Shown in pieces: positions 8,777-30,600 of a stretch of DNA of 64,000 nucleotides; the stretch's first letter is position 1, and each line of letters opens with the position of its first letter. The stretch comes from Amphiscolops sp. MND2022 (taxonomy: Eukaryota), in NCBI GenBank assembly GCA_964187785.1, contig OZ076409.1, positions 73,472,001-73,536,000 of the forward strand, given 5' to 3'. Under the pieces are notes generated by a model. That model searched no databases, was not told the origin of the DNA, and was given only the letters and a program-made list of their open reading frames with translations. The translations under genes and the position numbers were made by a program.

Positions 8777-8826
8777 GTAGGTTTTGAATTCATTTTATTT
8801 CCAACTAATTTTTTTTCTTTTTCCAG
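8777..8826 (+). other. Candidate 50-nt spliceosomal intron in the RepHel 5' leader
   Basis: AG|GTAGGT donor, CTAAT branch-like site (8805-8809), long pyrimidine tract and CAG acceptor. Confidence 0.45.
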
Positions 8827-8845
8827 GTGTCGGAGTCGACTTTTC

Positions 8846-8906
8846 CTGCATACAGGTAGTATTTGGTAACAGGTTTCTGCATACAGGTAGTATTTGGTAA
8901 CAGGTT
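8846..8906 (+). repeat. 31-bp tandem duplication upstream of RepHel
   Basis: CTGCATACAGGTAGTATTTGGTAACAGGTT at 8846 and 8877. Confidence 0.9.
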
Positions 8907-9220
8907 ACGTCTGGTTAGTTTGTGGGTTGAGTAGTAAATGGTGATCATCGATCGACGGAAAGCGTGGTCGGTGATTAGGTGTTCTCCACAAAACTAGTGG
9001 TAAAACAAGTAATCCTCGGTAAATATGCGGGCAAAGGTGAAAATGAAGTGCAACCGTGTTTCCAGTTATACGCAATCTTTGTTATGTGTCAAAAATGATG
9101 ACTTTTTCTGATGATGTCTAACAGGATCAGCGTTTTTCCAGATTTGATTTGATTCGCTTTGATCTGCTTTGCCAACATTAACTTGTTTTGCTTGGCTATC
9201 AAAGAGGCTAAAAGTCCACA

Positions 9221-12200
9221 ATGCCTCGTGGTAGAGGGAGAGGAAGAAGTGCCATTGTGAGGAGGAGGTGTGATATTCATAACATTTTCATTGGAGTAGA
9301 TGGCGTCTGTGCAAGATGTCAGGAGAGTCAGAGAGTTCAACATGATGCCGAACAAGATTTAACAGCTGTCAATGTCCCCAATCCCCCAGATGTCCCCAAT
9401 GATGAAGAGAGAGCAGAAGTTGAGATGACAAATGTGGAGATGTGCGAGAAGTGTTGCAGGACGACAACAGATGAATACAAACTTGACTTTCACTCTATGA
9501 ACCGAGACTCACTGCATACGACTAAATTTGGTAAACACGTTGCTGAGATGGGTGGAGAGGTCATCAGGATGTGTTACCAATGCGTCAACTACACTAACAA
9601 CGTTAAACGGCACTTGGACTGGCCTAATGCTTGGCCCAGTGTTATGTATACTCTACTTTTCGAGACACATAGGTTTAACTCTGATGCAAAAAAACTCTAT
9701 AAACTACTTCCACATGAAATTAAGGAATCATTTAAAGAAAACATGAATACTGTTCACCCATTAATTGCGACTTCCGTAACTGACTCTGTATTTAGGGATA
9801 TAACTCGCGAAAAGGAAGACTTTTGGAATTTAGTTAACACTAGAACTGCCAAAACACTCGTAAAAGCTTTAACTACTCACTGCTTTCCTAACATTAGGTG
9901 CCCTGCAGGTTGCTTTGAATTTGTCGAAAAATCTAACGGAATTTCTTTTGCACATTTTTTGAATTACCTTTTTCCTTTATTCACTAGTTTTAATGCAAAC
10001 AGTAAAAAATTTCTTAAAGGAGCACGAGATGATTTCACTAAACGTTTAACTCTCTTAGAAAAGTTTACTATTTCACCATGTGTAATCTGCAACGAAAAAG
10101 GTTTACAATTAGTAGTCTGTTCTGACCACAAAAACGGGGTGCCACTTAACTATGTTCATGTTCAAACGAACCCAGTGGCAGGTAACATCAGCCCGAAATC
10201 CGTCGACAGGTTAGCTCTCATGGTTTCGAGTGTCAGAACAGTAAGACCTTTGAAGATTGGCGCTAAAAGTGCTACTTTCACTATGTGTCGGGTTGACAGT
10301 GGACGCATAAGTGGTGTCAGTTCTACTGTTCTACACAGGTTCAGGAATTTTGAATGTCCTTTAAATTACTTACATCAAAACATGGAAAAACTTTTGATTA
10401 ATTGTCGTGATGATGTTAAGGAAATTATTAGGGTTTGTTGTCATAACCAAGAGATAAGCCAAAATTTAGCTGAAGCGTTACTTGAATTTCAAATCCCAGT
10501 TTCCTTAGCCACAATTGAAGAACACTGTAAAAATGCCACTGTTTTCAACATGAGCTCTCTGATGCGAATGAAGGACTTCGTTGAAACATGTCCCGATGAC
10601 ATTCTAAGCCGTGATGGTTTCAAAAAACCGTTGACTTATGGACATAAAATGGACGGCTACGGTTTTGAGCCGTGTAACTTTCCTAAAATGTTTTCTCAGG
10701 ACCGGAGTTTGTTCACCTTTTGTTATTCCATCTTGTATAATGATTTATTATGGTCTAAGCTCTGTAGTTGTTCAGGTGAGACAGACCTACTGGTTGAACT
10801 TTGTAAACTCTTGAATTGTTTGAGGGGAAACAGAAGCCTTCAATATCATAACACCATTAATTCACTAATTACTAATTTTCACAGGGTCATAAATGAACTT
10901 TTTCCATCTAATGTAGAACCTTTAACCTCTTTATGTGATATACTAGAAGGTTGTCAAGTTGTTAATTGTCAAAGAGGATCCGTTGAAAACGCTGTAATTG
11001 ATTGCTCGCGAAATGATCTGGTTCTAGTCGTCGCAACAGAAGCTCCAGCTAGGGATCGTCAAATTCCTTTCTATTTAACATCAATCAATGGTAAAAATTT
11101 TCAATTGACATTCATCTCAGCTGAAGGTAAGGTAAGTTTAAGGCACGGTGATCCTTTCTTTAACTTTTGGACAATTTTGAATGACGGAAGCCGAGCGGTG
11201 AAGGATCCAACTTTGGAATACCAGTATAATAGAACTTGGAAATGTTTAATTTACGTACTTAAAACAGACTTGAATGAGGAAACTAAACTAAGATACTTAA
11301 AATACATGGGAGGTCAGGGAATTTTTTTCTGTCAGGAACATCAGCTGCCTTTATCTACTGATTATTTTAAAAGCCAACGAAAATGTAGTATGCCAAAAAA
11401 CAACCGTGACCACCAGATCTGTACCAGAAAATCTGCTTGGCGTTGTCCGGAAAAAAATTGTTTAGCGTCCGTTTGTAAGACTCATTTCCGTGAATTCTGT
11501 GACGCTAACGATAAGGTTTTGGTCGACAACACGCCTTCTGATGATGCAATCCAAGATAGCAGCGATGAAGAAGCTACTTTGCTAGAAGAACCTGAAGAGC
11601 AGCCGGAAAACAATTTGCCAGGGCCAAGCTTCGTGCTGGACGAGCAACAGCGACCACAAGAACCAGAAGCCAACATGGATGAGTTCGATTGCCCACAATT
11701 AATTGTGGATGCCGGGTTCCAAGAAACTGATGCTTTTGCCACGGACGCTGGCTGCGAGCCCGTTTACTTGTCTAATGACTCTAATTTCGTTCCCATGCAT
11801 GTACTTTTAAATGGTGAATGTCAACTAATGAAAAGATTAAAATATCCCTCCCACATAGGCAAAAAGTTTCAACGCTTTTTTCAAAACTTTGTTTCCACTC
11901 TGCCGGGTCGCTCGATTCCCCTGCTGCAACCTGAAGCTTGTCTTTTTCCAAGTATTTTTTACAAGCAATTAGAAGACGGTTCTTTCCCTGGCGCTTTGCC
12001 TTTTTTCTTGTACGACGATAAAAATGCCAACTCTAAATTAGAATTTGACGGTCTACATGAACACCTGCGCTTAAGACTTAAGGACGGCACGCTTTTAACG
12101 TCTTCCAACTTGGCCTACATAATGTATGCTTTCGACTGTGTATTAAATTTGTCACTCGTAAAATGTCACACAAATCAATTTTTTAAACGTGGGCTGCAGA

Positions 12201-15200
12201 CTATCACTATTGGTAAGTACAGACCTCAGCAGCTTACATCAACAGAGTCTGTTCTAAAAATGGATAGCGTCGACAGCGACGTTCATGTAAATCGATTAGG
12301 AACTGCATGTGCCACTGAAACGCCGGATCTTTTTGTAACTTTTACATGTAACCAGAAGGAACACCCGGGTGTTGCTGAGGTCGTTAATGCAATCTACGAA
12401 CTGTACGGCAGCGCCAGCACCGAAGAACTAAAGGAAGTGCTCCAGGCTTACATGGTCATCATTGTAAGATGCTGGACTAGGACCATCGAACTTTTAATTG
12501 ACTACTTGAGGTTTTCAGATGAGCATATTTTGGGTAAAATTAATAAAGTTTGGGGTAGGGCAGAATTTCAAAGTGCAGCAGCCAACCTGCAACATTATCA
12601 CATTCTTTTTTGGTTAGAAAATTCAACTGATGACATTATCGATAAAATTCAATGTGCGCACAAACACGTCCTGCATGAGTTTAAAAAATTGTTTCAAATG
12701 AATTTCGGAACTGTTGATAGTGAGGAGCACGCAGGTAAGTTATTTGACGATTGTGTTCGCATTCAAAGTCATGATTGTGAGAAAGGGCACTGTCTTAAAA
12801 AAGTAAGGTTGAACGGCGAGCGAAAGTGTCGTTTCCCGCCCTATCCTCAAAGTAACGTTCCCTGGTACAAAGAATTTCACCAGCCACATTCGGAAGAAGC
12901 CCTAGTAGCATTACAGGAAATTGATTTGGCTGAACCGAGGCCTGGTTTTGATAGGTGTTTGCAGGTTACAACAACTCTAATGGCAGGTAAATACATGTAT
13001 GCGGCCACCAGAGGAGAGCACATGTCACCGCTGAATGTTGCCCTCTGGAGTATTTGTAAATCCAGTTTGAACGTTTTAAAGGTTTGCAAGTCGGTCGCAT
13101 CCAGGTACTTGACATCGTACGCTGCTGGAAAAGAAGAGCATGCTGATGTGGCCATCAATCCAGAAAATGCTCACAATGTGTTAAATGTGCAGGTTCAAAA
13201 AATTGAAAACAAAAAGTTAGGCGGTGTTAGAAAGATCCTTGCTCGAGAAGCTAAGCAGGATAAAACGCAAGGTATCATAGATTCTACCACCATTGCAAGT
13301 ACAGAATGTGTGTCATGGATGTTACAACTACCAACTGTGATTACAACCATGGATTTTGTTTCAGTCCCCACAGTAGCTTTAGAAAATCGGGGAGGTGTAA
13401 TTTTAAAAAGGAAAAATAATACTTGTTCAAGATCAAATATACCAGGTGTGGCCAACGAAGGCCCATGTGAGATCAGGGAACATCATTTGAGGTTACCACG
13501 TCATCGACTTTTTACTAGGAGCCAGAAAATAGTTCTAGAAAGTGTGAACAAAACGCCATTTAGTACTGATAAAGTAACTGTTTTTTCTCTACGTCCTCCT
13601 GAATTGCTTTTTGTAAACAAACTAAGACCCTACTTCAGGTGGTTTAAACGCGAAAAATTGTCCGGTAAAAGGGAGACTGCCAGTGTACGATTTTTGAAAA
13701 ACGACGTTAGGGAATCAACTTGGGTGGATGGCGAAAATTATGCCATTCGTTTAAGACCTTCTGCAGTTCCCGAATTTTCAGCTTTCGTCCAGGAATCTTT
13801 AGCGGCAAATCCAACCGATAGTAGACTGCTCGATGCCTTCGTTATAATTTCGGAAGTTTTGACTATTTCCTCACATCCAGGACGGTCGCTTTTTGTATCC
13901 AGTGACCCAAATTTGTCAAATACACCAGCAGAGGTGGTTTTTTCAAAAGTGTATCCCCGCAATCCTGCAAACTTTTTAATTCATTTTTTACTATCTAATG
14001 CTGCTTTCGAAACTGAATTTGAACTTTTTGATGTGCCAACTTTGAAGGATGCATACGTGAAGGGCAGGGTTGTACCAGACAAACAAGTATACGATGAAAA
14101 TGATGTCAATGAACTTTTGAAAAAATATGTACTTGAGCAATTGCGATACCTACCAGGTGGTACGCGTTCTTTTGATAACAATCTACTTGCGGCAAAGTCA
14201 GCATTCAAGGGAATGTTAATAGATAATGACATTTATAATGAAGGGCTGCCCATTACAAAGATGGATACCTTGACTGAAGCATTGGAAGATAAGGCTAAAA
14301 AGATGCTTCGGCAGTCCCAGTTAAACATCATAAAATCTTTAACTCAGAAAAATTTGCCCAATTTTCCTAATTCTAGCGTTTTTGAAAATGTGTCCAAGGA
14401 AACACCATCTGACTGGTCTGGTGAACTTGTTCCAAACAATTTTCAGACTGAAGAGTCTCGTGAAGAACAGACCATAATTTTAGAACAACTGAAAGAACTA
14501 ATTTGTGAAAATCTGTTTTCTGACCATAAATTTAGGAAACACCAGTTGATTTTGGGTCCACCAGGTACAGGTAAGACGTATGTGTTGACGATGGCTTTGG
14601 GTTATGCGCTCACGAAAGGGTTGTTTTGTCTTGTAACTAGTTTAGCATCCCGAAGATCGATGCACTTTGGCGGTGAGCACATTCACAAATTGTTTTGCTT
14701 GCCTCCTTCTTCTTGTGGATCACCGATCAAAATGGCCGAGCAAGCTCTCGTGAAACTGGACCACCGGAATGACAAGAAGATGCTGTTAATGGCCCTGGAA
14801 GTACTGTTCGTGGAAGAAGTGAGCCTAATCAGTGCTGAACAGTGGTCTGCCATGGACCTCACCCTTCAAGAGTTGAAGCAGTCAACCTTGCCTTTCGGTG
14901 GGGTTTTAGTGATCGCGAGTGGTGATCAGATGCAACTGCCATCAATTGAAGGGAACGACATCTTTCTCAGTCCTGTTCTACTGACAAACTTCGCAATGTT
15001 CTTTTTGTCGCACTTTGTTCGAATGACAGATGCAGACGGTCAAACTGTACTTCGACACATGTGGAAACGTCCCATAAATGCCCCTGCTGTCGCTGAAATA
15101 CTCGCGATTCTGGACACTAAGTGCACATTCAAGGACAGCTGGGATGACTTGGACGACCCTTGTGTAATGCGTGTTTTTGGCAAGCGGAAAGCTGAACAGA

Positions 15201-16336
15201 GAGAATTCGATAGCCACATTCAGCGAGTACGCGCGTCGGGATCGTCCTACCGCATTTTCGAAGCCAAGGATGAGATCTGTCTTTCGAAGAGCTCAGTTTG
15301 GAATGAGACTGACTCTCGACAAGTAAGTAACCATCTGAGCGACAAGGTAAACGAGCCCAAACAGTTAATTGTTTACTCAAAGGCTTTGGTAAGGGTCACA
15401 GTGAATCTGGAAGCTGAGCAATTGTCTCAAGGTCAGGTTGGTGTAGTTCACGAGGTTCCCACTGGTGACTCGGTCACAATCTACGTCCCAGATAGCAGTG
15501 GTGGGGAAGTTGACATCACTCCTGGGATGTTGGAACGCGAGGAGTACCTGACTTGGCGGACTGTGACTCTCTCAAAGCACACCGGCTTCGTTCAGCCTTT
15601 CAAGAAGAACTCAGTGCGAAGGGTTCAGTTACCGCTCATGAACTTTGTTGCCATGACAACGCACAAACTCATGGGTGACACATTTGAAAAGTTGGCGACG
15701 TCCATTTCCGCAACCGACAGTAGCTACGCTTTGTGGATGACGTCGCAAGTTTTTGTAATTGTCAGTCGTGTCAAACAATTAAAAAACCTTACTTTTGTTG
15801 GTAACAAAAATGCTACTTTAAGTGCCATCGAATCTATTTTTGAAAAGAGAGACTTGAGAGAGGAACGTCTCTTCAATTTGCTAGACAAAATAAAAAACAA
15901 CTCAAGGTGCAATTCCAATGTTCAGCCAATCAACATTTCGAAGTTATCTTACGTACCTTTTAACAAAAACATCCCAAGCACTCCGAATGGCTTCGTATAT
16001 CTTTTGATTAGTCTGAACCCGACTTCGCCCGAAACTTTTTACGTAGGAGAAACTGAGCGCGCGCTGTTAACACGGTTGTCGGAACACAACTGCGGCAACG
16101 GTTCAGATTTCACGAGAATACCCCACCGTTTGCCCTGGGCAGTCGCTGCTTTTATTTGCAATTTTTCATCACGTTTTTCGCGCCGAGACTTCGAAAAAGA
16201 AATACATCAAGAAATGCGTGTTCGTCATAACAATTTGAAAAATTTAAAAGACATGCTATCTCTTTTCCAGGAAAAAGTTAACGAAAAAAACTGTAATCTT
16301 CATTTTTGTGTTTGCGGTGAAATGCAGTCGACATAA
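9221..16336 (+). CDS. Helitron-like transposase: Cys-rich N-terminus, HUH/Y2 Rep domain, PIF1-family SF1B helicase, C-terminal GIY-YIG endonuclease (2371 aa)
   Basis: Uninterrupted ORF. Rep: motif I PDLFVTFTCN (~aa1035), motif II RAEFQ...QHYHILFW (HUH, ~aa1125), motif III RYLTSY (YxxxY, ~aa1296-1300). Helicase: Walker A GPPGTGKT (~aa1779), Walker B VEEVS, PFGG...GDQMQLP, MTTHKLMGDT, VIVSRVK. GIY-YIG: GFVYLL...FYVGET...RLSEHN (~aa2257 onward). Confidence 0.93.
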   Translation: MPRGRGRGRSAIVRRRCDIHNIFIGVDGVCARCQESQRVQHDAEQDLTAVNVPNPPDVPNDEERAEVEMTNVEMCEKCCRTTTDEYKLDFHSMNRDSLHTTKFGKHVAEMGGEVIRMCYQCVNYTNNVKRHLDWPNAWPSVMYTLLFETHRFNSDAKKLYKLLPHEIKESFKENMNTVHPLIATSVTDSVFRDITREKEDFWNLVNTRTAKTLVKALTTHCFPNIRCPAGCFEFVEKSNGISFAHFLNYLFPLFTSFNANSKKFLKGARDDFTKRLTLLEKFTISPCVICNEKGLQLVVCSDHKNGVPLNYVHVQTNPVAGNISPKSVDRLALMVSSVRTVRPLKIGAKSATFTMCRVDSGRISGVSSTVLHRFRNFECPLNYLHQNMEKLLINCRDDVKEIIRVCCHNQEISQNLAEALLEFQIPVSLATIEEHCKNATVFNMSSLMRMKDFVETCPDDILSRDGFKKPLTYGHKMDGYGFEPCNFPKMFSQDRSLFTFCYSILYNDLLWSKLCSCSGETDLLVELCKLLNCLRGNRSLQYHNTINSLITNFHRVINELFPSNVEPLTSLCDILEGCQVVNCQRGSVENAVIDCSRNDLVLVVATEAPARDRQIPFYLTSINGKNFQLTFISAEGKVSLRHGDPFFNFWTILNDGSRAVKDPTLEYQYNRTWKCLIYVLKTDLNEETKLRYLKYMGGQGIFFCQEHQLPLSTDYFKSQRKCSMPKNNRDHQICTRKSAWRCPEKNCLASVCKTHFREFCDANDKVLVDNTPSDDAIQDSSDEEATLLEEPEEQPENNLPGPSFVLDEQQRPQEPEANMDEFDCPQLIVDAGFQETDAFATDAGCEPVYLSNDSNFVPMHVLLNGECQLMKRLKYPSHIGKKFQRFFQNFVSTLPGRSIPLLQPEACLFPSIFYKQLEDGSFPGALPFFLYDDKNANSKLEFDGLHEHLRLRLKDGTLLTSSNLAYIMYAFDCVLNLSLVKCHTNQFFKRGLQTITIGKYRPQQLTSTESVLKMDSVDSDVHVNRLGTACATETPDLFVTFTCNQKEHPGVAEVVNAIYELYGSASTEELKEVLQAYMVIIVRCWTRTIELLIDYLRFSDEHILGKINKVWGRAEFQSAAANLQHYHILFWLENSTDDIIDKIQCAHKHVLHEFKKLFQMNFGTVDSEEHAGKLFDDCVRIQSHDCEKGHCLKKVRLNGERKCRFPPYPQSNVPWYKEFHQPHSEEALVALQEIDLAEPRPGFDRCLQVTTTLMAGKYMYAATRGEHMSPLNVALWSICKSSLNVLKVCKSVASRYLTSYAAGKEEHADVAINPENAHNVLNVQVQKIENKKLGGVRKILAREAKQDKTQGIIDSTTIASTECVSWMLQLPTVITTMDFVSVPTVALENRGGVILKRKNNTCSRSNIPGVANEGPCEIREHHLRLPRHRLFTRSQKIVLESVNKTPFSTDKVTVFSLRPPELLFVNKLRPYFRWFKREKLSGKRETASVRFLKNDVRESTWVDGENYAIRLRPSAVPEFSAFVQESLAANPTDSRLLDAFVIISEVLTISSHPGRSLFVSSDPNLSNTPAEVVFSKVYPRNPANFLIHFLLSNAAFETEFELFDVPTLKDAYVKGRVVPDKQVYDENDVNELLKKYVLEQLRYLPGGTRSFDNNLLAAKSAFKGMLIDNDIYNEGLPITKMDTLTEALEDKAKKMLRQSQLNIIKSLTQKNLPNFPNSSVFENVSKETPSDWSGELVPNNFQTEESREEQTIILEQLKELICENLFSDHKFRKHQLILGPPGTGKTYVLTMALGYALTKGLFCLVTSLASRRSMHFGGEHIHKLFCLPPSSCGSPIKMAEQALVKLDHRNDKKMLLMALEVLFVEEVSLISAEQWSAMDLTLQELKQSTLPFGGVLVIASGDQMQLPSIEGNDIFLSPVLLTNFAMFFLSHFVRMTDADGQTVLRHMWKRPINAPAVAEILAILDTKCTFKDSWDDLDDPCVMRVFGKRKAEQREFDSHIQRVRASGSSYRIFEAKDEICLSKSSVWNETDSRQVSNHLSDKVNEPKQLIVYSKALVRVTVNLEAEQLSQGQVGVVHEVPTGDSVTIYVPDSSGGEVDITPGMLEREEYLTWRTVTLSKHTGFVQPFKKNSVRRVQLPLMNFVAMTTHKLMGDTFEKLATSISATDSSYALWMTSQVFVIVSRVKQLKNLTFVGNKNATLSAIESIFEKRDLREERLFNLLDKIKNNSRCNSNVQPINISKLSYVPFNKNIPSTPNGFVYLLISLNPTSPETFYVGETERALLTRLSEHNCGNGSDFTRIPHRLPWAVAAFICNFSSRFSRRDFEKEIHQEMRVRHNNLKNLKDMLSLFQEKVNEKNCNLHFCVCGEMQST

Positions 16337-16393
16337 AAATATAAAATTTAAAACGCTTTGTTTTTGGCACGAGTTTTCTTAAATGTGTTTGTT

Positions 16394-16521
16394 GGAATCG
16401 ACGATGAGCGTGGTTCCAGGTAGGTTTAAATTAGGTTGGTTTGCTGGAATCGACGATGAGCGTGGTTCCAGGTAGGTTTAAATTAGGTTGATTTGCTGGA
16501 ATCGACGATGAGCGTGGTTCC
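16394..16521 (+). repeat. 52-bp-period tandem repeat carrying hairpin motif A, downstream of RepHel
   Basis: GGAATCGACGATGAGCGTGGTTCC at 16394, 16446 and 16498; a further copy with ATAAG loop at 16850. Confidence 0.9.
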
Positions 16522-16606
16522 AGTTTTCTTACATTAGGTTACTTCTTAAAAGAAAATTGAAATCCTAAGAGTGAAACTTATTCGTTGAAAAAATTTTCAT
16601 TAAACA

Positions 16607-16829
16607 TTGTTGAGTATCGCACGAAGTTCGACTACAGAGGGTGGACACAGTGCGATATTCAACAAAATTGAATTTCATACAAAGCTCTACTAACAGAGGG
16701 TGGGCATCGTATGAAATTCAAATGTCTACTTTACCAGTAAAAGTAAATATAAAATTTGATAACACTGATAAAACTCTTTTGGGTATCGCACAAAGTTCGA
16801 CTGCAGAGGGTGGACACCGTGCGATATTC
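16607..16829 (+). repeat. Three copies of long hairpin motif B
   Basis: GTTGAGTATCGCAC...GTGCGATATTCAAC (16609-16663), TTGAATTTCATAC...GTATGAAATTCAA (16668-16721) and a third at 16781-16829. Further copies at 17755-17808 and 20137-20190. Confidence 0.85.
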
Positions 16830-18557
16830 AACAGTTGAATTTGAAAGGTGGAATCGACGATAAGCGTGGTTCCTGGTTTGATACTTTTTAAAAGTAACAG
16901 GGTAGGATTAAAGAAGAAAATGACAAAGAACGATGTGACAGACCCATGATGACGATCCAGAAGCAAGACTTACAGTGTATGAGCTTGTGTACACCTTCCA
17001 AGCTTATACACAACTTTTTAAAAAAAAACCAACATCGAAACATATAACCAGTGTAGCAGCACGTGTAGACCTTTTGAGTCTTCCACGCTGACACACTCTA
17101 CGTAAATAAAGATCGTCAAATCCCAAAAACTGAAATATAATACCAAAACCAGACTTTCCCAAAACCGACTTTTTCTACTTCGACTTTTTGACTAAAAGAC
17201 TTCAAGACTGAGACTAATTGACTTTTTTCTAAAACCTAACCGTTCTTTTTCCTTACATAGTGAGTATGAGTGGAGTTGAGCTTTGAGACGTTTTTGACTT
17301 TATTCAAAGTAGTTTTCAAATTAAAGCGTCCACAGGAAGAAGAAAATATTTGGGAATTGATTCTTATAACCCTCACTTGTTTATTGTGACAAATTTTTTT
17401 GAAAGGTTGTAGGTTTAGAGCAGGCTGTAGTGAATAGATTGAACAATTGTCACTGTTGGACATGATTTCTGCATATCACTGGGAGCCCTAACTGATTGTT
17501 CTCGTTTTGTAGATAAAAATGAACACTTCAAGTCTTGTAATAGTTGTCACCAGTAACCTCGTCTATAGCAAACAGCATCTCGTTGCCTGCAACTGCGAAT
17601 CAACAGAATGCATCTGGAAAGATCATCTCACCAACATACCCCAACGTCAAGCTGGAAAAAGTTGCTCGGACATGAAGTAAGTTTCAATAAGTTTTAAAGT
17701 GTCTTAACAGAAAATTAATAAAAGGTTTTTGGACTTTTTTCTAACGTAGGCACTGTTGAATATCGTACAAAGCTCTACTAATCGAGGGTGGGCATCGTAT
17801 GAAATTCATTACTCTAAAATTAAGTACAATTAGATTTTGTGATCAATTACTTCGGCTTTGTCAGTTTAAGCGCTTTAGCGTCTTAAACTGACCCCTTTCT
17901 TTTCTCTTCTTCTTTGCCTCTTTCTTTTTCGTAGGCTTCTGACGACGTGGAAGAGAACGAGAGGAAACCGGGCGTGCACGCAGATCCTTCCTTTTTGCCG
18001 CAATTTGGAGCCGAAACAGCAATGTCACAAATTGAAGACGAACAATATTCCACATAACTTCACAAAAGTTTAATCAAAATTGATGAAATTCCTTTGGAAA
18101 CTGGAAAAAGAAACAACGGAACCCCAAAACCACGAAAAACACGGATCTGATGAACAAATGCAAAAAAGAAAAACGTTATTGAAACCAATAATGCTTGCAA
18201 AAAAATTTCTGTAATTTTCATTCAATGGATTCTTTGAAATGAATTACTTGTTCATTCTTTTCCTTTGTTTAGCTGATTGGACCCTAGTGTAAATACTCTT
18301 TGAGTACAAGCAGTTTGAATCTGTACACTTCGGTTGAAGATAGATACGTTTTAATCCTACTTTCCTTCTATATCTAATCTATATATAAGGTATATATCAA
18401 ATCTAGAAGCAATTTAGCTATATCTCGCCTTTATCCGTTTTCTTTATTCCAAAATATTCTTCATATGTACCTCATGAGACCATTATAGGGTGCTTCAGAT
18501 TTTCAAAGCTTTTGCTGAATTTGAAATAACGGTTTAGCTTACTTTCCAGATTCAAAC

Positions 18558-19673
18558 ATGCCCGGTTTTTTGAAAGCCACCCTGAGCGTTTCGCAGGCCG
18601 TTGAGCTATCGTCTAAATTCACCTTCATATCCATTGACGACCTCCTTACCCCGAATCATGATACCCCGAGGCTTTCCAAAGTCAATGCCAAGCTCTTATA
18701 CATAGCTCAGCCTCAAAAAAAGCTCTCGTATTCGAAAGTTACAAAGGGGTTCCACCAGGCCCGAAAATTAGAACTTGAAAAGTACCACAGATTTGTGGTA
18801 CTGGGCGTACCTGGTACGGCCACAGTTTTTTGTATGTTCACCCAGAATAGTGAGGAGAGCAGGAGGCTTTTGCGCTATCAAAAAAGCATCAGACCTGGAA
18901 CTGATGTTTTGGTACTGAAACCATATTTAGAAGGACAGCTGGGAGGAGGAGCTACTCCTCTGGTTACCACACGGGAACCATTGGTTCCAACCGCTGAAAT
19001 ATCGACTCTAACATCCCTGCCGCCCTTTGATGTCGAGGGCACCTCCTTAGAGTATAGATTTTTTTCATTCAATACTAGAAACCTGGCTGTTGACTCAGCT
19101 GTTATAGCTGAAAATGTATGCGACGGAGCCATTTGTGACGGACGAAGCTACCACGAGCCATGTGGATGCATCGAAGCGTCGTCTAAAAAGACGTGGGCGC
19201 TTTTGATAGATTTTACCTGCCCAGAGTTACACGGCCTAGACGACACCGTGTCTGTGTATTCCGTGAGTTTAGCAGCTGTCTTCCTCACTAGTAATATGAG
19301 GAACATCCAACCAGACAGCGAGAAACTGGATAGGTTCCAGCTCGACGAAAAAGTGCAGGTCCTTGTACAAGCAATAAATGATCACCAAGGATTTAGAGTC
19401 GAGGGCTGGTTCAAGCCAGCTGCCGACGAAGAAGGGACGGCTGTGGGAAATAAAAAGTACCACATTTCTTCATTGAGACCTGAAACCTCCTTGACCATGG
19501 ATCAACAGGCTCTTCAGTACGCTGGCGAACCTACTGCACCAACAACATCAGGATCAAATGCACCACCAACTCCTGAAACTACGCCTGGCGTTACTCCACC
19601 TGCTGCTCCCGCAACGCCTGGCGTTACTCCACCTGCTGCTCCCGCAACGCCTGGCCAAACGACATCGGGCTGA
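18558..19673 (+). CDS. Element-encoded 371-aa protein of unknown function with CxGxxCD-x6-CGC motif (possible Zn-ribbon/OB-fold ssDNA-binding accessory protein)
   Basis: Long clean ORF inside the autonomous element, co-oriented with RepHel, with a splice-acceptor-like TTTCCAG 9 nt before the ATG. Carries the motif CDGAICDGRSYHEPCGC and a Pro/Thr/Ala-rich tail. The fold assignment is inference only. Confidence 0.75.
   Translation: MPGFLKATLSVSQAVELSSKFTFISIDDLLTPNHDTPRLSKVNAKLLYIAQPQKKLSYSKVTKGFHQARKLELEKYHRFVVLGVPGTATVFCMFTQNSEESRRLLRYQKSIRPGTDVLVLKPYLEGQLGGGATPLVTTREPLVPTAEISTLTSLPPFDVEGTSLEYRFFSFNTRNLAVDSAVIAENVCDGAICDGRSYHEPCGCIEASSKKTWALLIDFTCPELHGLDDTVSVYSVSLAAVFLTSNMRNIQPDSEKLDRFQLDEKVQVLVQAINDHQGFRVEGWFKPAADEEGTAVGNKKYHISSLRPETSLTMDQQALQYAGEPTAPTTSGSNAPPTPETTPGVTPPAAPATPGVTPPAAPATPGQTTSG
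19581..19655 (+). repeat. 33-bp coding tandem repeat (TPGVTPPAAPA) in the ORF2 tail
   Basis: ACGCCTGGCGTTACTCCACCTGCTGCTCCCGCA twice plus a partial copy. Confidence 0.9.
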
Positions 19674-19983
19674 TTAGGCTTCATAGAACTGTTAACGGTC
19701 TTAGTTGACTTTACAAACTATTGTCCAGCGCTGTCAGGATTATCTAATGATTGCCCTGATTGAAACTTAAATTAGGATTACTTGTTCTCTTTTTTGATTA
19801 TTTCTGTCCTTTACTGTTGAATTTACAAGCAGAATTTACCTTTCTTGAATAGGCATCTCTAATGGTAAAATGAGAGAACTGTAATTCATTTTTGTTCAAT
19901 GACCATATATTTTTCTTCAGGTATTTAAGTATTTCCTTCTGTTTGAGGATACGTATATTTTGATTACATCAGACTAATTTGGT

Positions 19984-20111
19984 GGAATCGACGATAAGCG
20001 TGGTTCCAGGTTTGGGTAAAACAGTCTGATTAGGTGGAATCGACGATAAGCGTGGTTCCAGGTTTGGGTAAAACAGTCTGATTAGGTGGAATCGACGATA
20101 AGCGTGGTTCC
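19984..20111 (+). repeat. 52-bp-period tandem repeat carrying hairpin motif A, downstream of ORF2
   Basis: GGAATCGACGATAAGCGTGGTTCC at 19984, 20036 and 20088. Confidence 0.9.
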
Positions 20112-20372
20112 ACTTTTCTTTACATTAGGTTAGTTTGTTGAGTATCGCACAAAGTTCTACTACAGAGGGTGGACACCGTGCGATATTCGGTTTTTTGAAA
20201 TTGAGAAAAATTATGTAACGACAACCCTTCCGCATTCTCTAACATCATTAACCACTAATTAACCTCCAACCAACACCGACTGAAGACGACGCTCATCCAA
20301 TCACGTAAGTAACTTTTTTCTTTTTAACACTTTCCCGCCTACTAGACTCTTCGTTTTGCCGTCCACGTCTAG

Positions 20373-21677
20373 GTGGCCACGACCATGGTTTCTTGCGTAT
20401 CTTGTCGAATCCTTTGTCGTTGCCGGCCGGGGAGGGACCCGTTTGCCGGCGTGTGTAGTGTGGGGCCCCCATACCCAAAAAGTGGTATTTTTTTCAGAGA
20501 TCTCAAAATCGGCCCATCAGAATTGCCTGAAATTTGGCATGAGGCTCCCAATTGGGGAAAAAATAAGAAGTGTAGGAGGCGACTTGTTCGGGTAAATATT
20601 GTATGTTGACTTTTGGCCAAAATAGTGTTCCCCCCCAACATGGGCAAAATCACATGAGTTGTAAAAATATGATCACAACTTTTGAACCTTTGGATTTAGG
20701 GGTACGGTCGTGGACCACATTAAGCAAGAGCTTTGGTGAGCGGGTAGGATAGATGGGTTTTGATCCCAGTACCTTCAACCACTTTTGAGAAATTAACGTT
20801 TCAAACAAACATCCGGGAGGTATCTGTTGCCCCTGAAGGCAGGTTTTTCGCCATTTTCAATGTGAAGGAGTGGGTTTAGCGTAACGTGTGTGGGGTGCTT
20901 TTTTGTTGCCCGTGTGCGGAGCGTTGTATAGAGGTGCTGGTTGTTGAAATTGGAAAAGCTGCTAAAAAAGTTATACCTATACCCCCCCTACTGTCTCTGC
21001 CATTCAATTTTTTTTTCAACTTCAGGCCTCCCAAAGGTGAGAAACTTCCACACAACTAGTATTGCAAGTGAATGCATGTGGAAAGTACTCGGATAGACGA
21101 GAAAAATGAGCTATAGAACGACTCTGTAGCTTAACCTGACGTTGACTTATGACATTTTGAGTGTGAGCTTGCTACGAGAGAAAAAAATTCAAAATTGAAA
21201 ATCGAAGCTAAGTCTCATCCAAAACTCATCGAAATACGTTCAATCCATACCAAAGCGGTCAAACTCCAGCTATATAGTGCAGCAACACTATTCAAGACCA
21301 TTTGACACAATTTTACTAGTTTTGACATTGTATTATTCATCCGAGAGCACAAAACAGTTGGGTACATTCCATCTCCCTTTCGGGGGAGATGAGAATGTAC
21401 CCGCTAAATGACACGCACCATGGCCTAATTTTTACCTTTATGCGACCTTTTCTAGGCTTTCGCGCAAGCCCACTAATATTTAGACTGGTTTCTTTCTCTT
21501 TCACTCCAAACATTCCGTCCGTACTAACCACCTTACACACCACCAGCAGCTCAACGACACATCTGTAACGTCAACGCCACATACTCGCATCAACGCCCAC
21601 CGTCCGTGGGCATGCCGAGGCATGCCCTTCGACGACGTATGCCCGTTGTCACAACAGGGCGCCCCTACATTCTCTAG
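20373..21677 (+). mobile_element. Unit U8, chimeric (divergent 5' half, B/C-type 3' half; 1305 bp)
   Basis: Divergent over 20373-~21010, then rejoins the TTCAACTTCAGGCCTCCCAAAG consensus; palindromic tail. Confidence 0.75.
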
Positions 21678-24600
21678 GTGCAGATCCCCTTTGGGATGCC
21701 TTAGTTTCGAGGGCGGGGTAGGGCCCCCAGCCCGAGTCTAGTATAAACAACGTAAGGCGATTTTAACAGTGAGGTATCGATTTTCTAAACGAGCCATACG
21801 ATTTGGCTGAAATTTTGCATACGGCTTCCTATAACAATCCTAAGAACTAATCCCTACTGGCGTTTTGCCCGGAAAAATCAAAAAGTGGGTCAAAATCTTA
21901 GTTTTTTGGTCAAAAAATGGCGTTTTTTTGGAAAAAAAAATTTTAAGAGCCAATATCTCGCTCCACAGGCCCCGGATCAAAAAGTGTACAATTGTTCGCG
22001 TGCTAGGCACTTCATGAACTGTCCGTAGACAAATTTTCGTCCAGATCGGATAAAAATTGACTGAGTAATAGAAAACTTTGAAAGTGATTTTGACGACTTT
22101 TTTCGAAAACCTAGTCTATCTCTGCCGTTTTTTGCCCAGATTTTTTTCCAGGACCTCTCCTAAAGGCCTCCCCTGGCCGGTTTACCTCCCAGAAAAACCA
22201 TTTGGCCCTTTTGCCGCAGTTTCAGCGTTCCAGGATTCCCCGGGTAAAAGATAAATGACTTAGAATTTTTTCGAAAATTTTTCAAATTTTTTTTTTCAAC
22301 TTCAGGCCTCCCAAAGTCAGGAAACTTCCACACAACTAGTATTGCAAGTGGATGCATGTGGAAAGTGCTCGAATAGACGAGAAAAATGAGCTATTATAAA
22401 CCTCTGTAGCTTAACCTGACGTTGACTTATGACAATTTTAGTGTGAGCTTGCTATGTGAGAAAAAATTCGAAAATTGAAAATCGAAGCTAAGTCTCATCC
22501 AAAACTCATCGGAATGGGTTCAATCCATCCCAAAGCGGTTTAATTCCAGCTATATAGTGCGCCAACACCATTCAGGGTCGTTTGACCCATTTTTACAACT
22601 TTTGACACCGTCTTATCCATCCGAAAGTTCGAAACAGTTAAGTACATTCCATCTCCCCTCCGTGGGAGATGGTAATGTACTCGCAAAAAGCCAAGGTCCT
22701 ACCGCCCTGTTCTATCCGGCGTTGCGCCAGAAATGCAGTAGCATGAGCTGCAGGTCGTTTACAGTAGCCTTTACGGGTGTTGTGACTATGCATTACAAGT
22801 CTAACTATGTTACTGAACGTGAAAAATTTGTTTCACTCCAAAATTTTTTTCAACTATTTTATGTCATCAATAAAGATATATCCATCCATTTACTACTACC
22901 TACCCCATCACCCGCCCCCTCCACTATCTGTTCAACCGTGCACGTCTAGGTGGTCCGGTACACTACCAACAAAACATTGTCGCGAGCAACGGGGAGGGTC
23001 CTGTAGCGAGCTTTATAGGAAAAAAACGGCGGAGCATATATACTAGGCAACATCGGCACTTTTACCCACGATCTCTGAAATGAACCATACGATCCGGCTC
23101 AAAATTTGCATACGGCTTCCTCTAGCAATTCTAAGAACTTTTCCCTACTGGCATTTTGCCCGGAAAATTCAAAAAGTGGGTCAAAATCTTAGTTTTTTGG
23201 TCGAAAAATGGCGTTTTTTTGGAAAAAATTTTTTTAAGAGCCCATATCTCGCTCCCAGGTGCTCGGAGCGGGTCGCATGTGGACGTTGATATTGCTGGGC
23301 ACTTCTTAAGGAGTCCGTAGACAAATTTTCGTACAGATCGGATGAAAATTGACTGAGTAATAGCCGCAAATCCGACGAATTTTTCAGAAAATTTTGGTAC
23401 ACCTAGTCTATCTCTGCCGTTTTTTGCCCAGATTTTTTTCCAGGACCTCTCCTAAAGGCCTCCCCTGGCCGGTTTACCTCCCAGAAAAACCATTTGGCCC
23501 TTTTGCCGCAGTTTCAGCGTTCCAGGATTCCCCGGGTAAAAGATAAATGACTTAGAATTTTTTCGAAAATTTTTCAAAATTTTTTTTTTCAACTTCAGGC
23601 CCCCCAAAGTCAAGAAACTTCCACACAACTAGTATTGCAAGTGAATGCATGTGGAAAGTGCTCGAATAGACGAGAAAAATGAGCTATTATAAAGTTCTGT
23701 AGCTTAACCTGACGTTGACTTATGACAATTTTAGTGTGAGCTTGCTATGTGAGAAAAAATTTCATAAATTGAAAATCGAAGCTAAGTCTCATCGGAATAC
23801 GTTCAGTGGACCCCAGCGCTGTTTAAATGCCGCTGTTTAGTGCAGCAACGCCCTTTAAGGTCATTTGATTCATTTTTTACAGGTTTTGACACCGTCTTAT
23901 CCATTCGAAAGTTCGAAAGAGTTGTGTACATTCCATCTCCCACCTTCTATGGGGGAGATGGTAATGTACACGCAAAAAGCCAAGTACTACTGTTCTTTTT
24001 ATACTTGGAGTGGCCTCGGCAATGCAGTAGCGGGAGCTCCAGGTCGTTTGCCGTAGCCTTATTGTCTGTTTAGGCTTTGCTACAACAGAAACTATGTTAC
24101 TGAACATGAAAAAGATTGTTTCAATCCAAATGTTTTTTCAAATAATAATACCAAATAACACATGTCCATATATCCACTATTGCCACTAAATACTGGCGCA
24201 TCGTCGCACAACGAAGCCTGCAGCGCTAGGTGCCAATCCCCCCGGGATGCCACAACTTCGAGGGCGGGGTAGGGCCCCCTGCCCGAGTCCAAAACCAACG
24301 GCGCTAAACTTCGCGCCAGAAACTTAAGGCGTTTTCCATTTCTAGAGGCGATCTCGAAAACGGCCCTATAGAATTGGCTCAAAATTTGCATACGGCTTCC
24401 TCTAGCGATTCTAAGAACTTTTCCCTACTACCGTTTTGCCCAAAAAAATTTTTTTGTTGACTTATAGACAATTTTAGGTGCCGAAAATGGCGTTTTTTCG
24501 AAAAATTTTTTTTCAAGAGCCCATATCTCGCTCCCAGGTGCTCGGAGCGGGTCGCATGTGGACGTCGATATTGCTAGGCACTTCGTAAGGAGTCCGTAGA

Positions 24601-27600
24601 CAAATTTTCGTCCAGATCGGATGAAAATTGACTTAGTAATAAAAAACTTTGATTTGCATTTTTTCGAAAATTTATGAAATCCCAGTGTATCTCTGCCGTT
24701 TTTTGCCCAGATTTTTTTCTAGGACCTCTCCTAAAGGCCTCCCCTGGCCGGTTTACCTCCCAGAAAAACCATTTGGCCCTTTTGCCGCAGTTTCAGCGTT
24801 CCAGGATTCCCCGGGTAAAAGTAAAATGACTTAGAATTTTTTCGAAAAATTTTCAAAAAATTTTTTTTCAACTTCAGGCCTCCTAAAGTCAGGAAACGTC
24901 CACACAACTAGTATTGCAAGTGAATGCATGTGGAAAGTGCTCGAATAGACGAGAAAAATGAGCTATTATAAAGTTCTGTAGCTTAACCTGACGTTGACTT
25001 ATGACAATTTTAGTGTGAGCTTGCTATGTGAGAAAAATTTTCAAAAATTGAAAATCGAAGCTAAGTCTCATCCAAAACTCATCGGAATACGTTCAATCCA
25101 TCCCAAAGCGGTTTATTTCCAGCTATATAGTGCAGCAACACCATTCAAGACCTTTTGACCCATTTATATTAGTTTTGACACCGTCTTATCCGTTTGAAAG
25201 TTCGAAACAGTTAAGTACATTCCATCTCCCCTCCGTGGGAGATGGTAATGTACTCGCAAAAAGCCAAGTACTACCGCCCTATTCTACCCGTAGTGGTGCT
25301 AGAAATGTAGTAGCGGGAGCGCCAGGCTGTTTACAGTAGCCTTTACGGGTGTTGTGACTATGTATTACAAATCTAACTATGTTACTGAACGTGAAAAAAA
25401 CTGTTTCACTCCAAATTTTTTTTCAACTATTTTATGTCATCAATAAAGATATATCCATGCATTTACTACTACCTACCCCATCACCCGCCCCCTCCACTAT
25501 CTGTTCAACCGTACACGTCTAGGTGCCCTAACCCATCGGTTTGCCTTCATTTTGAGGGCGGGGTAGGGCCCCCGACCGGCTCCTCAGGCTTTAGACTGAC
25601 AACGTAAGGCGCTTTTTAGGTGTAGAGACGATCTCGAAAATGGCCCATACGATTTTGCTCAAATTTTGCATACGGCTTCCTCTAGCGATTCTAAGAACTT
25701 TTCCCTACTACCATTTTGCCCGGAAAAATCAAAAAGTGGGTCAAAATCTTAGTTTTTTGGTCGAAAAATGGCGTTTTTTCAGAAAATTTTTTTTCAAGAG
25801 CCCATATCTCGCTCCCAGGTGCTCGGAGCGGGTCGCATGTGGACGTTGATATTGCTAGGCACTTCGTTAGGAGTCCGTAGACAAATTTTGGTTCAGATCG
25901 GATGAAAATTGACAGAGTAATAGCCGCAAATCCGACGAATTTTTCAGAAAATTTTGGTACACCTAGTCTATCTCTGCCGTTTTTTGCCCAGATTTTTTTC
26001 CAGGACCTCTCCTAAAGGCCTCCCCTGGCCGGTTTACCTCCCAGAAAAACCATTTGGCCCTTTTGCCGCAGTTTCAGCGTTCCAGGATTCCCCGGGTAAA
26101 AGTAAAATGACTTAGAATTTTTTCGAAAAAACTTCAAAATTTTTTTTTCAACTTCAGGCCTCCCAAAGTCAGGAAACGTCCACACAACTAGTATTGCAAG
26201 TGAATGCATGTGGAAAGTGCTCGAATAGACGAGAAAAATGAGCTATTATAAACCTCTGTAGCTCAACCTGACGTTGACTTATGACAATTTTAGTGTGAGC
26301 TTGCTATATGGTAAAAAAATTCAAAAGATGAAAATTGAAGCTAAGTCTCATCCAAAACTCATCGGAATGCGTTCAATCCATCCCAAAGCGCTTTGTTCCC
26401 AGTTGTAGAGTGCAGCAACACCATTCGAGGTCATTTAACCCATATTTATAAGTTTTGACACCGTCTTATCCATCCGAAAGTTCGAAACAGTTAAGTACAT
26501 TCCATCTCCCCTCCGTGGGAGATGGTAATGTACTCGCAAAAAGCCAAGTATCACCGCCCTATTCTACCCGTAGTTGTGCTAGAAATGCAGCAGCGGGAGC
26601 GCCAGGCTGTTTACAGTAGCCTTTACGGGTGTTGTGACTATGTATTACAAATCTAACTATGTTACTGAACGTGAAAAAATTGTTTCACTCCAAAATTTTT
26701 TTCAACTATTTTATGTCATCAATAAAGATATATCCATCTTTCCTACTACAACCACCCTACCACCCGGCCCCTCGTATCTTTGTTCAACCGTACACGTCTA
26801 GGTGGTCGGGAATCTTTCCTACCTCATGCTTTGAGGGCGGGGTAGGGCCCCTCGCCCGATCCTAATCCTTAGGATTTTAAACATAAGGCGAAAAGACCAA
26901 ATGAAAGCGATCTCGAAAACTAACCTTACGATTTGGCTGAAATTTTGCATGCGGCTCCCTATGACAGATATAAGAACAAATCCCTACTGGCATTTTGCTG
27001 GGAAAATTCAGTTTTTGGGTCAAAATCACTATTTTAGGTCCAAAAAATGGCGTTTTTTCGGAAAATTTTTTTTCAAGAGCCAATATCTCGCTCCCAGGTG
27101 CTCGGAGCGGGTCGCATGTGGACGTTGATATTGCTGGGCACTTCGTAAGGAGTCCGTAGACAAATTTTGGTTCAGATCGGATGAAAATTGATAGAGTAAT
27201 AGCCGCCGATTTGGCGCATTTTTTCGCAAATTTTTGAAAACCTAGTCTATCTCTGCCGTTTTTTGCCCAGATTTTTTTCCAGGACCTCTCCTAAAGGCCT
27301 CCCCTGGCCGGTTTACCTCCCAGAAAAACCATTTGGCCCTTTTGCCGCAGTTTCAGCAATCCAGGATTCCCCGGGTAAAAGATAAATGACTTAGAATTTT
27401 TTCAAAAATTTTTCAAAATTTTTTTTTTCAAGTTCAGGCCTCCCAAAGTCAAGAAACGTCCACACAACTAGTATTGCAAGTGAATGCATGTGGAAAGTGC
27501 TCGAATAGACGAGAAAAATGAGCTATTATAAACCTCTGTAGCTCAACCTGGCGTTGACTTATGACAATTTTAGTGTGAGCTTGCTATGTGAGAAAAAATA

Positions 27601-30600
27601 TCGAAAAATCAAAATCGAAGCTAAGCCTCATCCAAATCTCATCGGAATACGTTCAATCTATCCCAAAGTGGTTTATTTCCAATTGTCTAGTGCAGCACCA
27701 CCATTCAAAGTCCTTTTTGACTAATTTATATAAGTTTTGACATCGTCTTATCCATTCGAAAGTTGAAGCAGTTAAGTACATTCCATCTCCCCTCCGTGGG
27801 AGATGGTAATGTACGCGCAAAAAGCCAAGTACTATTGCCCTTTTTCTACATGGAGTGCACCTAGAAATGCATTAGCGTGAGCTCCACGCTGCTTGCAGTA
27901 GCCCTTACAGGTGTTGTACCTTTGTTACAAAACTAACTATGTTACTAATCATAAAAAAAATGTTACAATCGAAAAATTATTTTCAATAATTATATTTACA
28001 CGTTTTGTTGTCAATTACAATAACTACAGCTACCGCCCTGGCCTGATTGTTCAACCGTGCACGTCTAGGTGCCCAAACCTATCGGTTTACCTTCACTTTG
28101 AGGGCGGGGTAGGGCCCCCGACCGGCTCCTCAGGCTTTAGACTGACAACGTAAGGCGCTTTTCAGTTGTAGAGACGATCTCGAAAATGGCCCATACGATT
28201 TTGCTCAAATTTTGCATACGGCTTCCTCTAGCGATTCTAAGAACTTTTCCCTACTACCATTTTGCCCGGAAAAATCAAAAAGTGGGTCAAAATCTTAGTT
28301 TTTTGGTCGAAAAATGGCGTTTTTTCAGAAAATTTTTTTTCAAGAGCCCATATCTCGCTCCCAGGTGCTCGGAGCGGGTCGCATGTGGACGTTGATATTG
28401 CTAGGCACTTCGTAAGGAGTCCGTAGACAAATTTTCGTCCAGATCGGATAAAAATTGATAGAGTAATAGCCGCCGATTTGGCGAATTTTTTCGACATTTT
28501 TCGAAATCACAGTCTATCTCTGCCGTTTTTTGCCCAGATTTTTTTCCAGGACCTCTCCTAAAGGCCTCCCCTGGCCGGTTTACCTCCCAGAAAAACCATT
28601 TGGCCCTTTTGCCGCAGTTTCAGCGTTCCAGGATTCCCCGGGTAAAAGTAAAATGACTTAGAATTTTTTCAAAAAATTTTCAAAAATTTTTTTTTCAACT
28701 TCAGGCCTCCCAAAGTCAAGGAACTTCCACACAACTAGTATTGCAAGTGAATGCATGTGGAAAGTGCTTGAATAGACGAGAAAAATGAGCTATTATAAAA
28801 CTCTGTAGCTTAACTTGACGTTGACTTATGACAATTTTAGTGTGAGCTTGCTATATGGTAAAAAAATTCAAAAGATGAAAATTGAAGCTAAGTCTCATCC
28901 AAAACTCATCGGAATGCGTTCAATCCATCCCAAAGCGCTTTGTTCCCAGTTGTAGAGTGCAGCAACACCATTCGAGGTCATTTAACCCATATTTATAAGT
29001 TTTGACACCGTCTTATCCATCCGAAAGTTCGAAACAGTTAAGTACATTCCATCTCCCCTCCGTGGGAGATGGTAATGTACTCGCAAAAAGCCAAGTATCA
29101 CCGCCCTATTCTACCCGTAGTTGTGCTAGAAATGCAGCAGCGGGAGCGCCAGGCTGTTTACAGTAGCCTTTACGGGTGTTGTGACTATGTATTACAAATC
29201 TAACTATGTTACTGAACGTGAAAAAATTGTTTCACTCCAAAATTTTTTTCAACTATTTTATGTCATCAATAAAGATATATCCATCTTTCCTACTACAACC
29301 ACCCTACCACCCGGCCCCTCGTATCTTTGTTCAACCGTACACGTCTAGGTGCCCAAATCCATCGATTTACCTTCATTTTGAGGGCGGGGTAGGGCCCCCG
29401 ACCGGCTCTTCAGGCTTTAGACTGGCAACTTTAAGCCATTTCGCAAAATGGAAGCGATTTTCTAAACGGCCCATACGATTTGGCTCAAATTTTGCATACG
29501 GCTTCCTCTAGCGATTCTAAGAACTTTTCCCTACTACCATTTTGCCCGGAAAATTTTTTTTGTTGACTTATAGACAATTTTAGGTGCCAAAAATGGCGTT
29601 TTTTCGAAAAATTTTTTTTCAAGAGCCCATATCTCGCTCCCAGGTGCTCGGAGCGGGTCGCATGTGGACGTCGATATTGCTAGGCACTTCGTAAGGAGTC
29701 CGTAGACAAATTTTCGTACAGATCGGATGAAAATTGACTTAGTAATAAAAAACTTTGATTTGCATTTTTTCGAAAATTTCTGAAAACCCAGTCTATCTCT
29801 GCCGTTTTTTGCCCAGATTTTTTTCCAGGACCTCTCCTAAAGGCCTCCCCTGGCCGGTTTACCTCCCAGAAAAACCATTTGGCCCTTTTGCCGCAGTTTC
29901 AGCGTTCCAGGATTCCCCGGGTAAAAGTAAAATGTCTTAGAATTTTTTCGAAAAATTTTCAAAAAAAATTTTTTTCAACTTCAGGCCTCCCAAAGTCAAG
30001 AAACGTCCACACAACTAGTATTGCAAGTGGATGCATGTGGAAAGTGCTCGAACAGACGAGAAAAATGAGCTATTATAAACCTCTGTAGCTCAACCTGACG
30101 TTGACTTATGACAATTTTAGTGTGAGCTTGCTATGTAAGAAAAATTTTCAAAAATTGAAAATCGAAGCTAAGTCTCATCCAAAACTCATCTGAATACGTA
30201 CAATCCATCCCAAAGCGGTTTATTTCCAGCTTTCCAGTGCAGCAACACCATTCGAGGTCATTTAACCCATATTTATAAGTTTTGACACCGTCTTATCCAT
30301 CCGAAAGTTCGAAACAGTTAAGTACATTCCATCTCCCCTCCGTGGGAGATGGTAATGTACTCGCAAAAAGTCAAGTATCACCGTCCTATTCTACCCGTAG
30401 TTGTGCTAGAAATGCAGTAGCGGGAGCGCCAGGCTGTTTACAGTAGCCTTTACGGGTGTTGTGACTATGTATTACAAATCTAACTATGTTACTGAACGTG
30501 AAAAAATTGTTTCACTCCAAAATTTTTTTCAACTATTCTATGTCATCAATAAAGATATATCCATCCATTTACTACTACCTACCCCATCACCCGCCCCCTC

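Follow-up and report, generated by a model that had tools for sequence, protein, structure and literature searches.

A hairpin whose loop is conserved in sequence, situated at a fixed position inside the heads of Helitron-like units, is a real and selected cis-signal. Folded in the single-stranded + strand at the 5′ end of a unit, it is predicted to be the site bound by the transposase RepHel, and it probably serves to position RepHel at the nick site CTAG^GTG and to start copying. The initial annotation had proposed either a Rep origin signal or a protein-binding RNA loop; the heads shared with RepHel elements, the covariation and the strand bias speak best for a + strand signal recognised by Rep, and the RNA loop is the less likely of the two. 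The Helitron-like lineage which carries the hairpin is apparently undescribed. Hairpins at the ends of HUH transposons are ordinary; out of the ordinary are a sequence-conserved loop across enzymes at 25-40% identity, the new ends and target, and mixed arrays built at the elements' own junctions.

The mixed array and its autonomous element

The window, by which we mean the whole 64,000-nt stretch that was analysed, is part of a 1.07-Gb eukaryotic assembly (C1:73,472,001-73,536,000) and is filled by units of about 1.3 kb around a single 12.4-kb element. The features on which the description rests are the following.

197..64000, + strand: mixed head-to-tail array; 37 heads, with 24 head types among the 36 typed
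7990..20372, + strand: autonomous element, GTG...CTAG, 12,383 bp; head shared with the 1.3-kb units
9221..16336, + strand: RepHel open reading frame, 2371 aa; two-tyrosine HUH Rep, PIF1-like helicase, GIY-YIG at the C-terminus
18558..19673, + strand: second open reading frame of the autonomous element; codes for 371 aa, without a Pfam match
20369..20375, + strand: junction CTAG/GTG, the upstream element's last four bases and the flagged unit's first three
20373..21677, + strand: non-autonomous unit bearing the flagged hairpin, 1305 bp

All 36 CTAGGTG junctions which start units in the window are on the + strand, and the 37th junction reads CTGGGTG (58403-58409). For the flagged unit we infer that the nick and insertion site lies between 20372 and 20373. 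Neighbouring units mostly belong to different families, same-type neighbours being found in 3 of 35 cases as compared to 1.1 expected by shuffling, and the best match of a window unit is mostly located elsewhere, far off in the array. Genome-wide, thousands of Helitron-like copies are arranged head to tail in such mixed arrays, as the junction-plus-loop pattern returned 4,002 matches and the reversed control pattern 0; matches with D-N-AG before GTG numbered 8. Junctions or loops were present in 17 of 20 ten-kb samples (C1 73.3-76.4 Mb; C2 102-104 Mb). The arrays span megabases (C1 at approximately 73.3-76.5 Mb, also C1 at 3.5, 24, 29.5 and 38 Mb, and C2 at 102-104 Mb), and in the C1 samples their units are on one strand.

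The RepHel protein matches the Pfam families Helitron_like_N (2e-10) and PIF1 (3e-11), its HUH and YxxxY motifs are conserved, and the HUH Rep is fused to a PIF1-like helicase, as is characteristic of the Helitron-like superfamily. The 1.3-kb units are the non-autonomous partners of 12-kb Helitron-like elements encoding RepHel and GIY-YIG, with which they have their heads in common. The latter domain (window 15990-16220; residues 2257-2333 of P0001) ends the protein and putatively could cut the second strand or branched intermediates; it appears degenerate in the relatives P0019, P0023 and P0024. The 371-aa product has a Pro/Ala/Thr-rich tail derived from a 33-bp repeat (19581-19655), and two related 52-bp tandem repeats (16387-16523 and 19970-20112) flank the region of this second reading frame. 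An internal inverted repeat, GTACATT...CATCTCCC / GGGAGATG...AATGTAC, is located at approximately 21362-21400 of the window, some 280 nt before the end of the tail, and occupies the equivalent place in most units with a variable loop.

The head hairpin and the strand in which it folds

The hairpins of the window which are referred to below are listed here.

8017..8055, + strand: the autonomous element's loop hairpin; TAGGGC loop from 8032, A-T at pair 4
20422..20450, + strand: loop hairpin of the flagged unit, named P2; GCCGGC/GCCGGC as lower stem, CGGG/CCCG as upper stem, GAGGGA as loop (20432-20437)
21684..21697, + strand: example of a smaller first hairpin (P1), set back a few bases from the head's start; sequence family-variable
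58403..58467, + strand: variant junction CTGG/GTG of U35 and loop-less head hairpin (hairpin at 58436-58467)

The structure GCCGGC-CGGG-gaggga-CCCG-ttt-GCCGGC, annotated earlier at 20423..20450, is present and begins one base earlier, at 20422, and the other hairpin examples quoted with it were all found in the sequence. Its reported occurrence after almost every junction holds, as 35 of the 37 window heads carry the hairpin, but the spacing is tighter than the approximately 25-75 nt given: in 53 of 56 types the start of the loop is 40-46 nt away from the element's first base, the flagged unit being the outlier with its loop at 60 nt. Overall, the hairpin is situated 26-60 bases inside the 5′ end. 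When the junction was the sole criterion for picking heads (61 clusters from 203 rows, part of which come from overlapping loci; 2 clusters were dropped as non-heads), the core was recovered in 56 of 59 head types, was lacking in 2 and had been lost by deletion in 1. The consensus of the hairpin top is GGG-NN-GGG-N-CC, of which GGG-NN-GGG-N-C is invariant in the 51 types with a 6-nt loop, (T/G)A being usual at NN. Thus, in the (T/G)AGGG loop as first described only the GGG is invariant and (T/G)A is merely common, with TT, TC, AA and GAGAC as variants. Nor does the stem change completely between subfamilies as had been stated, since the top three pairs (G-C or G.T in the head types) hardly vary and free variation is confined to the lower stem. 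A covariance model across heads, which had been suggested as a check, was built from the 56 types and recovered 35 of 37 window heads on the + strand, heads resembling the training set matching by construction; elsewhere in the window it found only one weak minus-strand echo of the same hairpin.

The heads of U35 and U36 do lack the loop, as annotated, but the CCGGAGT...ACTCCGG stem attributed to them is not conserved, ACTCCGG being unbroken in 5 of the 9 rows (among the remaining four, two represent one place). A hairpin formed by a T-run-CCGGAG and a CTTTGG-A-run (58436-58467), at the usual position, is kept in all 9 rows of this loop-less family. The smaller P1 hairpin, which precedes the main one, pairs above the shuffle mean in 52 of 59 types and is individually significant in 9 of 59 (p up to 0.05).

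Support for the hairpin is derived from covariation and fixed position rather than from folding energy. Own arms of the lower stem scored 16.6 as compared to 12.9 for swapped arms (z 9.7; 51 arm pairs), and with one pick per stem class the z-score was 8.4-9.8 for 26 classes and 4.6-6.3 for 11 classes. Pair 4 covaries (CG 22, GC 14, TG 6 and AT 3 of 56 types) and is paired in 93.3% of cells as compared to 85.6% in shuffles (0/500), a control which ignores relatedness. Pairing no better than in shuffled controls had been named in advance as the outcome that would speak against the hairpin; against dinucleotide shuffles the folding energy is better, though modestly so, with a mean z of -1.1 and 13 of 59 types below -2.

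The suggestion that compensatory changes and G-T pairs favour folding of the + strand was confirmed, as the stems covary and G.T pairs number 33 as compared to 6 A.C pairs under symmetric scoring. YGAR is found in both arms in 19 of 56 types, the minus-strand equivalent in 0, and tandem G.A pairs are stable in DNA. Both G.T and tandem G.A pairs favour folding of the + strand, which folds better than the minus strand in 43 of 56 types and worse in 3.

With RNA folding parameters the + strand is favoured in 50 of 56 types and, this being also the coding strand, the hairpin could instead act in RNA or bind a host protein, being either an RNA loop at the 5′ end or a single-stranded site recognised by an hnRNP A1-like TAGGG binder, or else a GC-box-like promoter element of the transposase gene. 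The loop resembles TAGGG, the motif of hnRNP A1 and of telomeres, as well as the Sp/MAZ boxes, and a conserved host factor would account for conservation of the loop across an enzyme identity of 25%. We nevertheless regard this reading as improbable: non-coding units keep the covarying stem without a transcript to regulate, the distance is fixed to the nick site and not to the reading frame (0.7 to approximately 7 kb away), and a double-stranded promoter box needs no stem. An RNA loop is made less likely by ends without hallmarks of reverse transcription and by the absence of matches to Rfam (0 at E up to 1, 20300-38000) and of tRNA genes (0 in a scan of the window).

Ends, target and the start of copying

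The ends and the target were read from solo and nested insertions (L084, L090, two in L022, L097 and L099). For the solo units L084 and L090 the host DNA ends in CTAG before GTG and begins with GT after the CTAG of the unit, while two units nested in another unit occupy the sites TTG^GT and CTGG^GT. Of 35 distinct flanks following a tail, 16 begin with GT and 14 with AT (30/35); the contexts preceding a head (n=183) comprise CTAG 160, CTGG 12, CTTG 3, CTCG 1 and other 7, that is, CTNG in 176 of 183, most of the CTAG and CTGG contexts being the tails of previous units. These insertions and counts establish an element GTG...CTAG which enters a target CTNG^RT, each insertion rebuilding the target site on both sides. 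Target-site duplication is absent in the solo and nested insertions, as in the Helitron-like superfamily, a result read from the host unit or flank rather than from empty-site alleles. At L022:6371-8993 two complete units are situated inside the body of a third, with their CTNG^GT sites 13 bases apart.

Most elements are located at one another's junctions. In one tail family, 159 copies have GTG next and 31 have other letters. By our estimate, a six-base target alone would be expected hundreds of thousands of times in this genome, so the arrays would imply a preference for junctions which extends beyond six bases. A hairpin common to all tails was not found among 43 tail clusters; what is present in part of the tails is a palindrome.

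21608..21627, + strand: tail palindrome GGGCATGC-CGAG-GCATGCCC, in 140 of 203 tail rows and absent in the rest

The palindrome lies 56-77 nt before CTAG and is nearly unchanged across families which otherwise differ.

HUH enzymes cut single-stranded DNA, often bind hairpins and stay on the 5′ end; their bind site is separate from the nick site, and for some of them a copy of their own origin serves as the site of integration (PMC10288648, PMC5714925, PMC4778049). A + strand hairpin which keeps its distance on the 3′ side of CTAG^GTG would suit a bind site at the starting end. The enzyme would recognise the loop and the uppermost pairs through their sequence, and the lower stem through its shape, which would allow families to drift in the stem. 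As a tail joined to any head would rebuild the full origin, a resident junction may, with less certainty, be treated as a landing site, and new copies would likely be inserted in front of old ones. A single-unit circle would contain a tail-CTAG-GTG-head joint identical to the array junction, in which case insertion would be an exchange between two origins, as with TrwC and related relaxases, for which origin-to-origin strand exchange at oriT is described (PMC5714925). Owing to tails without a common hairpin, copying may, again less surely, end at the head of the downstream neighbour; landing at junctions together with ending at the next head could then give rise to mixed arrays and preserve a single loop across all the families. 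Counting against the bind-site reading are the several copies of the loop-less U35/U36 family, full-length insertions also at sites without the hairpin, the modest folding z-scores, and three foreign contigs with the hairpin (below) in which the junction could not be placed.

Alternatively, the hairpin may be a stop signal, with copying from tail to head and the reading frame pointing toward the origin, so taking the role which falls to the hairpin at the 3′ end in canonical Helitrons or to the ter end in IS91. This is suggested by 24 dispersed broken RepHel copies, of which 12 keep the tail only, 2 the head only, 3 both and 4 neither, with 3 undecided (sign test by hand for 12 to 2, p ~0.013); the copies were chosen by Rep match, the search for heads covering 8-11 kb and that for tails covering 10 kb or using a pattern. 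The starting end of Helraiser is indispensable and always kept (PMC4778049), and the retention of the tail by broken copies here therefore points to the tail as origin and the head perhaps as terminator. Reversed layouts are also described for HLE2-reverse (PMC11417382) and for Paramecium clade B (PMC13085455) in the sections cited. Conversely, the displaced strand would in that case be the minus strand, in which the hairpin folds worse, and the headless copies may be solitary merely because they are unable to attract an array. Moreover, CTNG^RT on the + strand matches CTTG, which is the nick motif of IS91 and phiX174-type Reps. It matches as well the CTAG^T end of Helitrons in the cited part of PMC4778049. 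On balance we find a stop signal rather unlikely and retain the hairpin as the predicted bind site at the starting end. Two headless RepHel copies on different chromosomes (L107:2396 and L114:2338) have the same internal start and the same short upstream stretch.

More tentatively, as a possibility to which we would give less than even weight, the elements may constitute a widespread and undescribed third Helitron-like lineage with one hairpin code, in which each head is its own origin, the landing pad of its relatives and the stop of its upstream neighbour, so forming a cooperative, cassette-like megabase array through site-specific HUH integration in a eukaryote. Helitron biology is largely that of one rebuilt element, which inserts at AT without strong site choice. 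With natural end variants in the dozens, numerous transposase frames that are long and intact, and a target that is defined, origin recognition and target choice by RepHel become directly testable. If junction targeting holds, this would be a eukaryotic integrase acting on single strands in a site-specific manner, with a landing site of approximately 65 bases which is portable, and mobile elements would have a way of building up megabase arrays that spares genes.

Related enzymes and known systems

A genome search with the Rep region gave 116 matches ranging from 96% down to 32% identity, many of them in frames of more than 2,200 aa. Among 10 divergent RepHel copies (32-41% identical) a junction was present within 8 kb upstream in 6 and none was in range in 4; in all 6 of the former the nearest head carries the loop hairpin. 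As RepHel families which are 32-41% identical each have their own hairpin-bearing head, the loop is common to a clade of enzymes. The shared machinery proposed at first is accordingly not one enzyme, as many RepHel families (32-96% identical) are involved.

The same hairpin, with new well-paired lower stems, was found upstream of 25-33%-identical RepHel genes on the metagenome contigs L142, L145 and L152. These are 3 hairpins as compared to 0.14 expected in 17,243 upstream bases of 20 RepHel-related loci, and no other hairpin match occurred in 260,260 bases of these loci on both strands. Their covariance-model scores are 30.3, 25.7 and 17.1 bits, respectively, the last not being significant; L142 also resembles the unit body (E 1e-13), and a junction could not be placed in any of the three. 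The hairpin was absent upstream in L140 (2.6 kb), L148 (5.9 kb) and L149 (1.2 kb), the 17 loci remaining beside L142, L145 and L152 mostly having little upstream DNA. The Rep profile retrieved 411 clusters at E up to 1e-30, and of 10 that were looked up one is named hypothetical and one is an uncharacterized hagfish protein. RepHel relatives were not found in viral contigs, and a PDB search with the Rep profile gave no real match. Four pattern matches in viral contigs had no stem on reading and were taken as chance.

The motif could also be a neutral relic of common descent, spread by array homogenisation or by single-unit rolling-circle concatemers, seeing that the units are all related and that G+C-rich sequence folds readily. 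We consider this very improbable in view of stem compensation across 11-26 classes, the recurrence of the hairpin in foreign contigs, and an array in which neighbours are of different families and best matches are far away.

In a tree of 17 rows the ten rows of the clade form a separate branch (100/100) outside HLE1 and HLE2; the tree is unrooted, with long branches and few references, comprising Helraiser-like HLE1 rows (2) and DUF6570 HLE2-type rows of the same genome and leaving out the Paramecium and Repbase sets. Motif 2 of the Rep reads EFQxxxxNxxHxH, with seven residues between Q and the first H as compared to five in the HLE1 and HLE2 rows and in the Paramecium rows of PMC13085455.

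The elements share with HLE1, including Helraiser, a two-tyrosine HUH Rep fused to a PIF1-like helicase, a 3′ CTAG (in some CTGG; the CTRR of that group is represented here by CTAG and less often by CTGG), the absence of a target duplication, and non-autonomous partners with shared ends. They differ from HLE1 in a 5′ GTG (56/56 types, which were selected on GTG) in place of TC, in the target CTNG^RT in place of A^T, and in a common hairpin at the 5′ end with none common to the 3′ ends, where HLE1 has a hairpin approximately 11 nt before the 3′ end and in 140 of 203 rows the present elements have instead the palindrome, 56-77 nt upstream. Further differences are the fused GIY-YIG and the mixed arrays at the elements' own junctions, and the Rep profile of the clade did not match Helraiser. 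The covariance model gave 0 matches in 20 HLE1/HLE2 loci, which are mostly coding DNA and thus have little bearing on ends.

RepHel is likewise shared with HLE2 (Helentron, Helitron2, HLE2-reverse and proto-Helentron), some members of which have a 5′ stem-loop and OTU domains, and one moss family a GIY-YIG, in the part of the source cited (PMC11417382). In contrast to HLE2, DUF6570 was found in 0 of 8 clade proteins scanned (8/8 in HLE2-type controls), the target is CTNG^RT and not T^T, and the tree branch is separate; short terminal inverted repeats, an HLE2 trait, were not seen by eye in heads and tails. Paramecium Helitrons, as described in the cited portion (PMC13085455), are similar in lying outside HLE1/HLE2, in being target-specific, in a 3′ tetranucleotide resembling the target and in one orientation. 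They differ in ending with CCAA after a 3′ stem-loop and in inserting into telomeric repeats (PMC13085455), as compared to CTAG and CTNG^RT here, and in a motif 2 of EFQxRGSxHxH, from a few supplement rows translated by eye (PMC13085455), as compared to EFQxxxxNxxHxH.

IS91 resembles the elements in two-tyrosine rolling-circle transposition beside a tetranucleotide target (PMC10288648), and TrwC at oriT and AAV Rep at AAVS1 do so in that the enzyme integrates where it finds a copy of its own origin (PMC5714925). This likeness is one of way of working and not of membership, as these systems are bacterial or viral, IS91 is without a fused PIF1 helicase, and multi-family arrays of thousands are absent from them. 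The literature consulted, which lay outside Repbase and the subscription journals, gave no description of the lineage, its ends or junction targeting; HELIANO has unnamed extra clusters which could include the lineage (PMC11417382). The same genome also holds HLE1-type transposases and DUF6570-bearing HLE2-type transposases (L190-L209), and the RepHel relatives P0018, P0023 and P0025 carry an OTU-like N-terminal domain, as in some HLE2.
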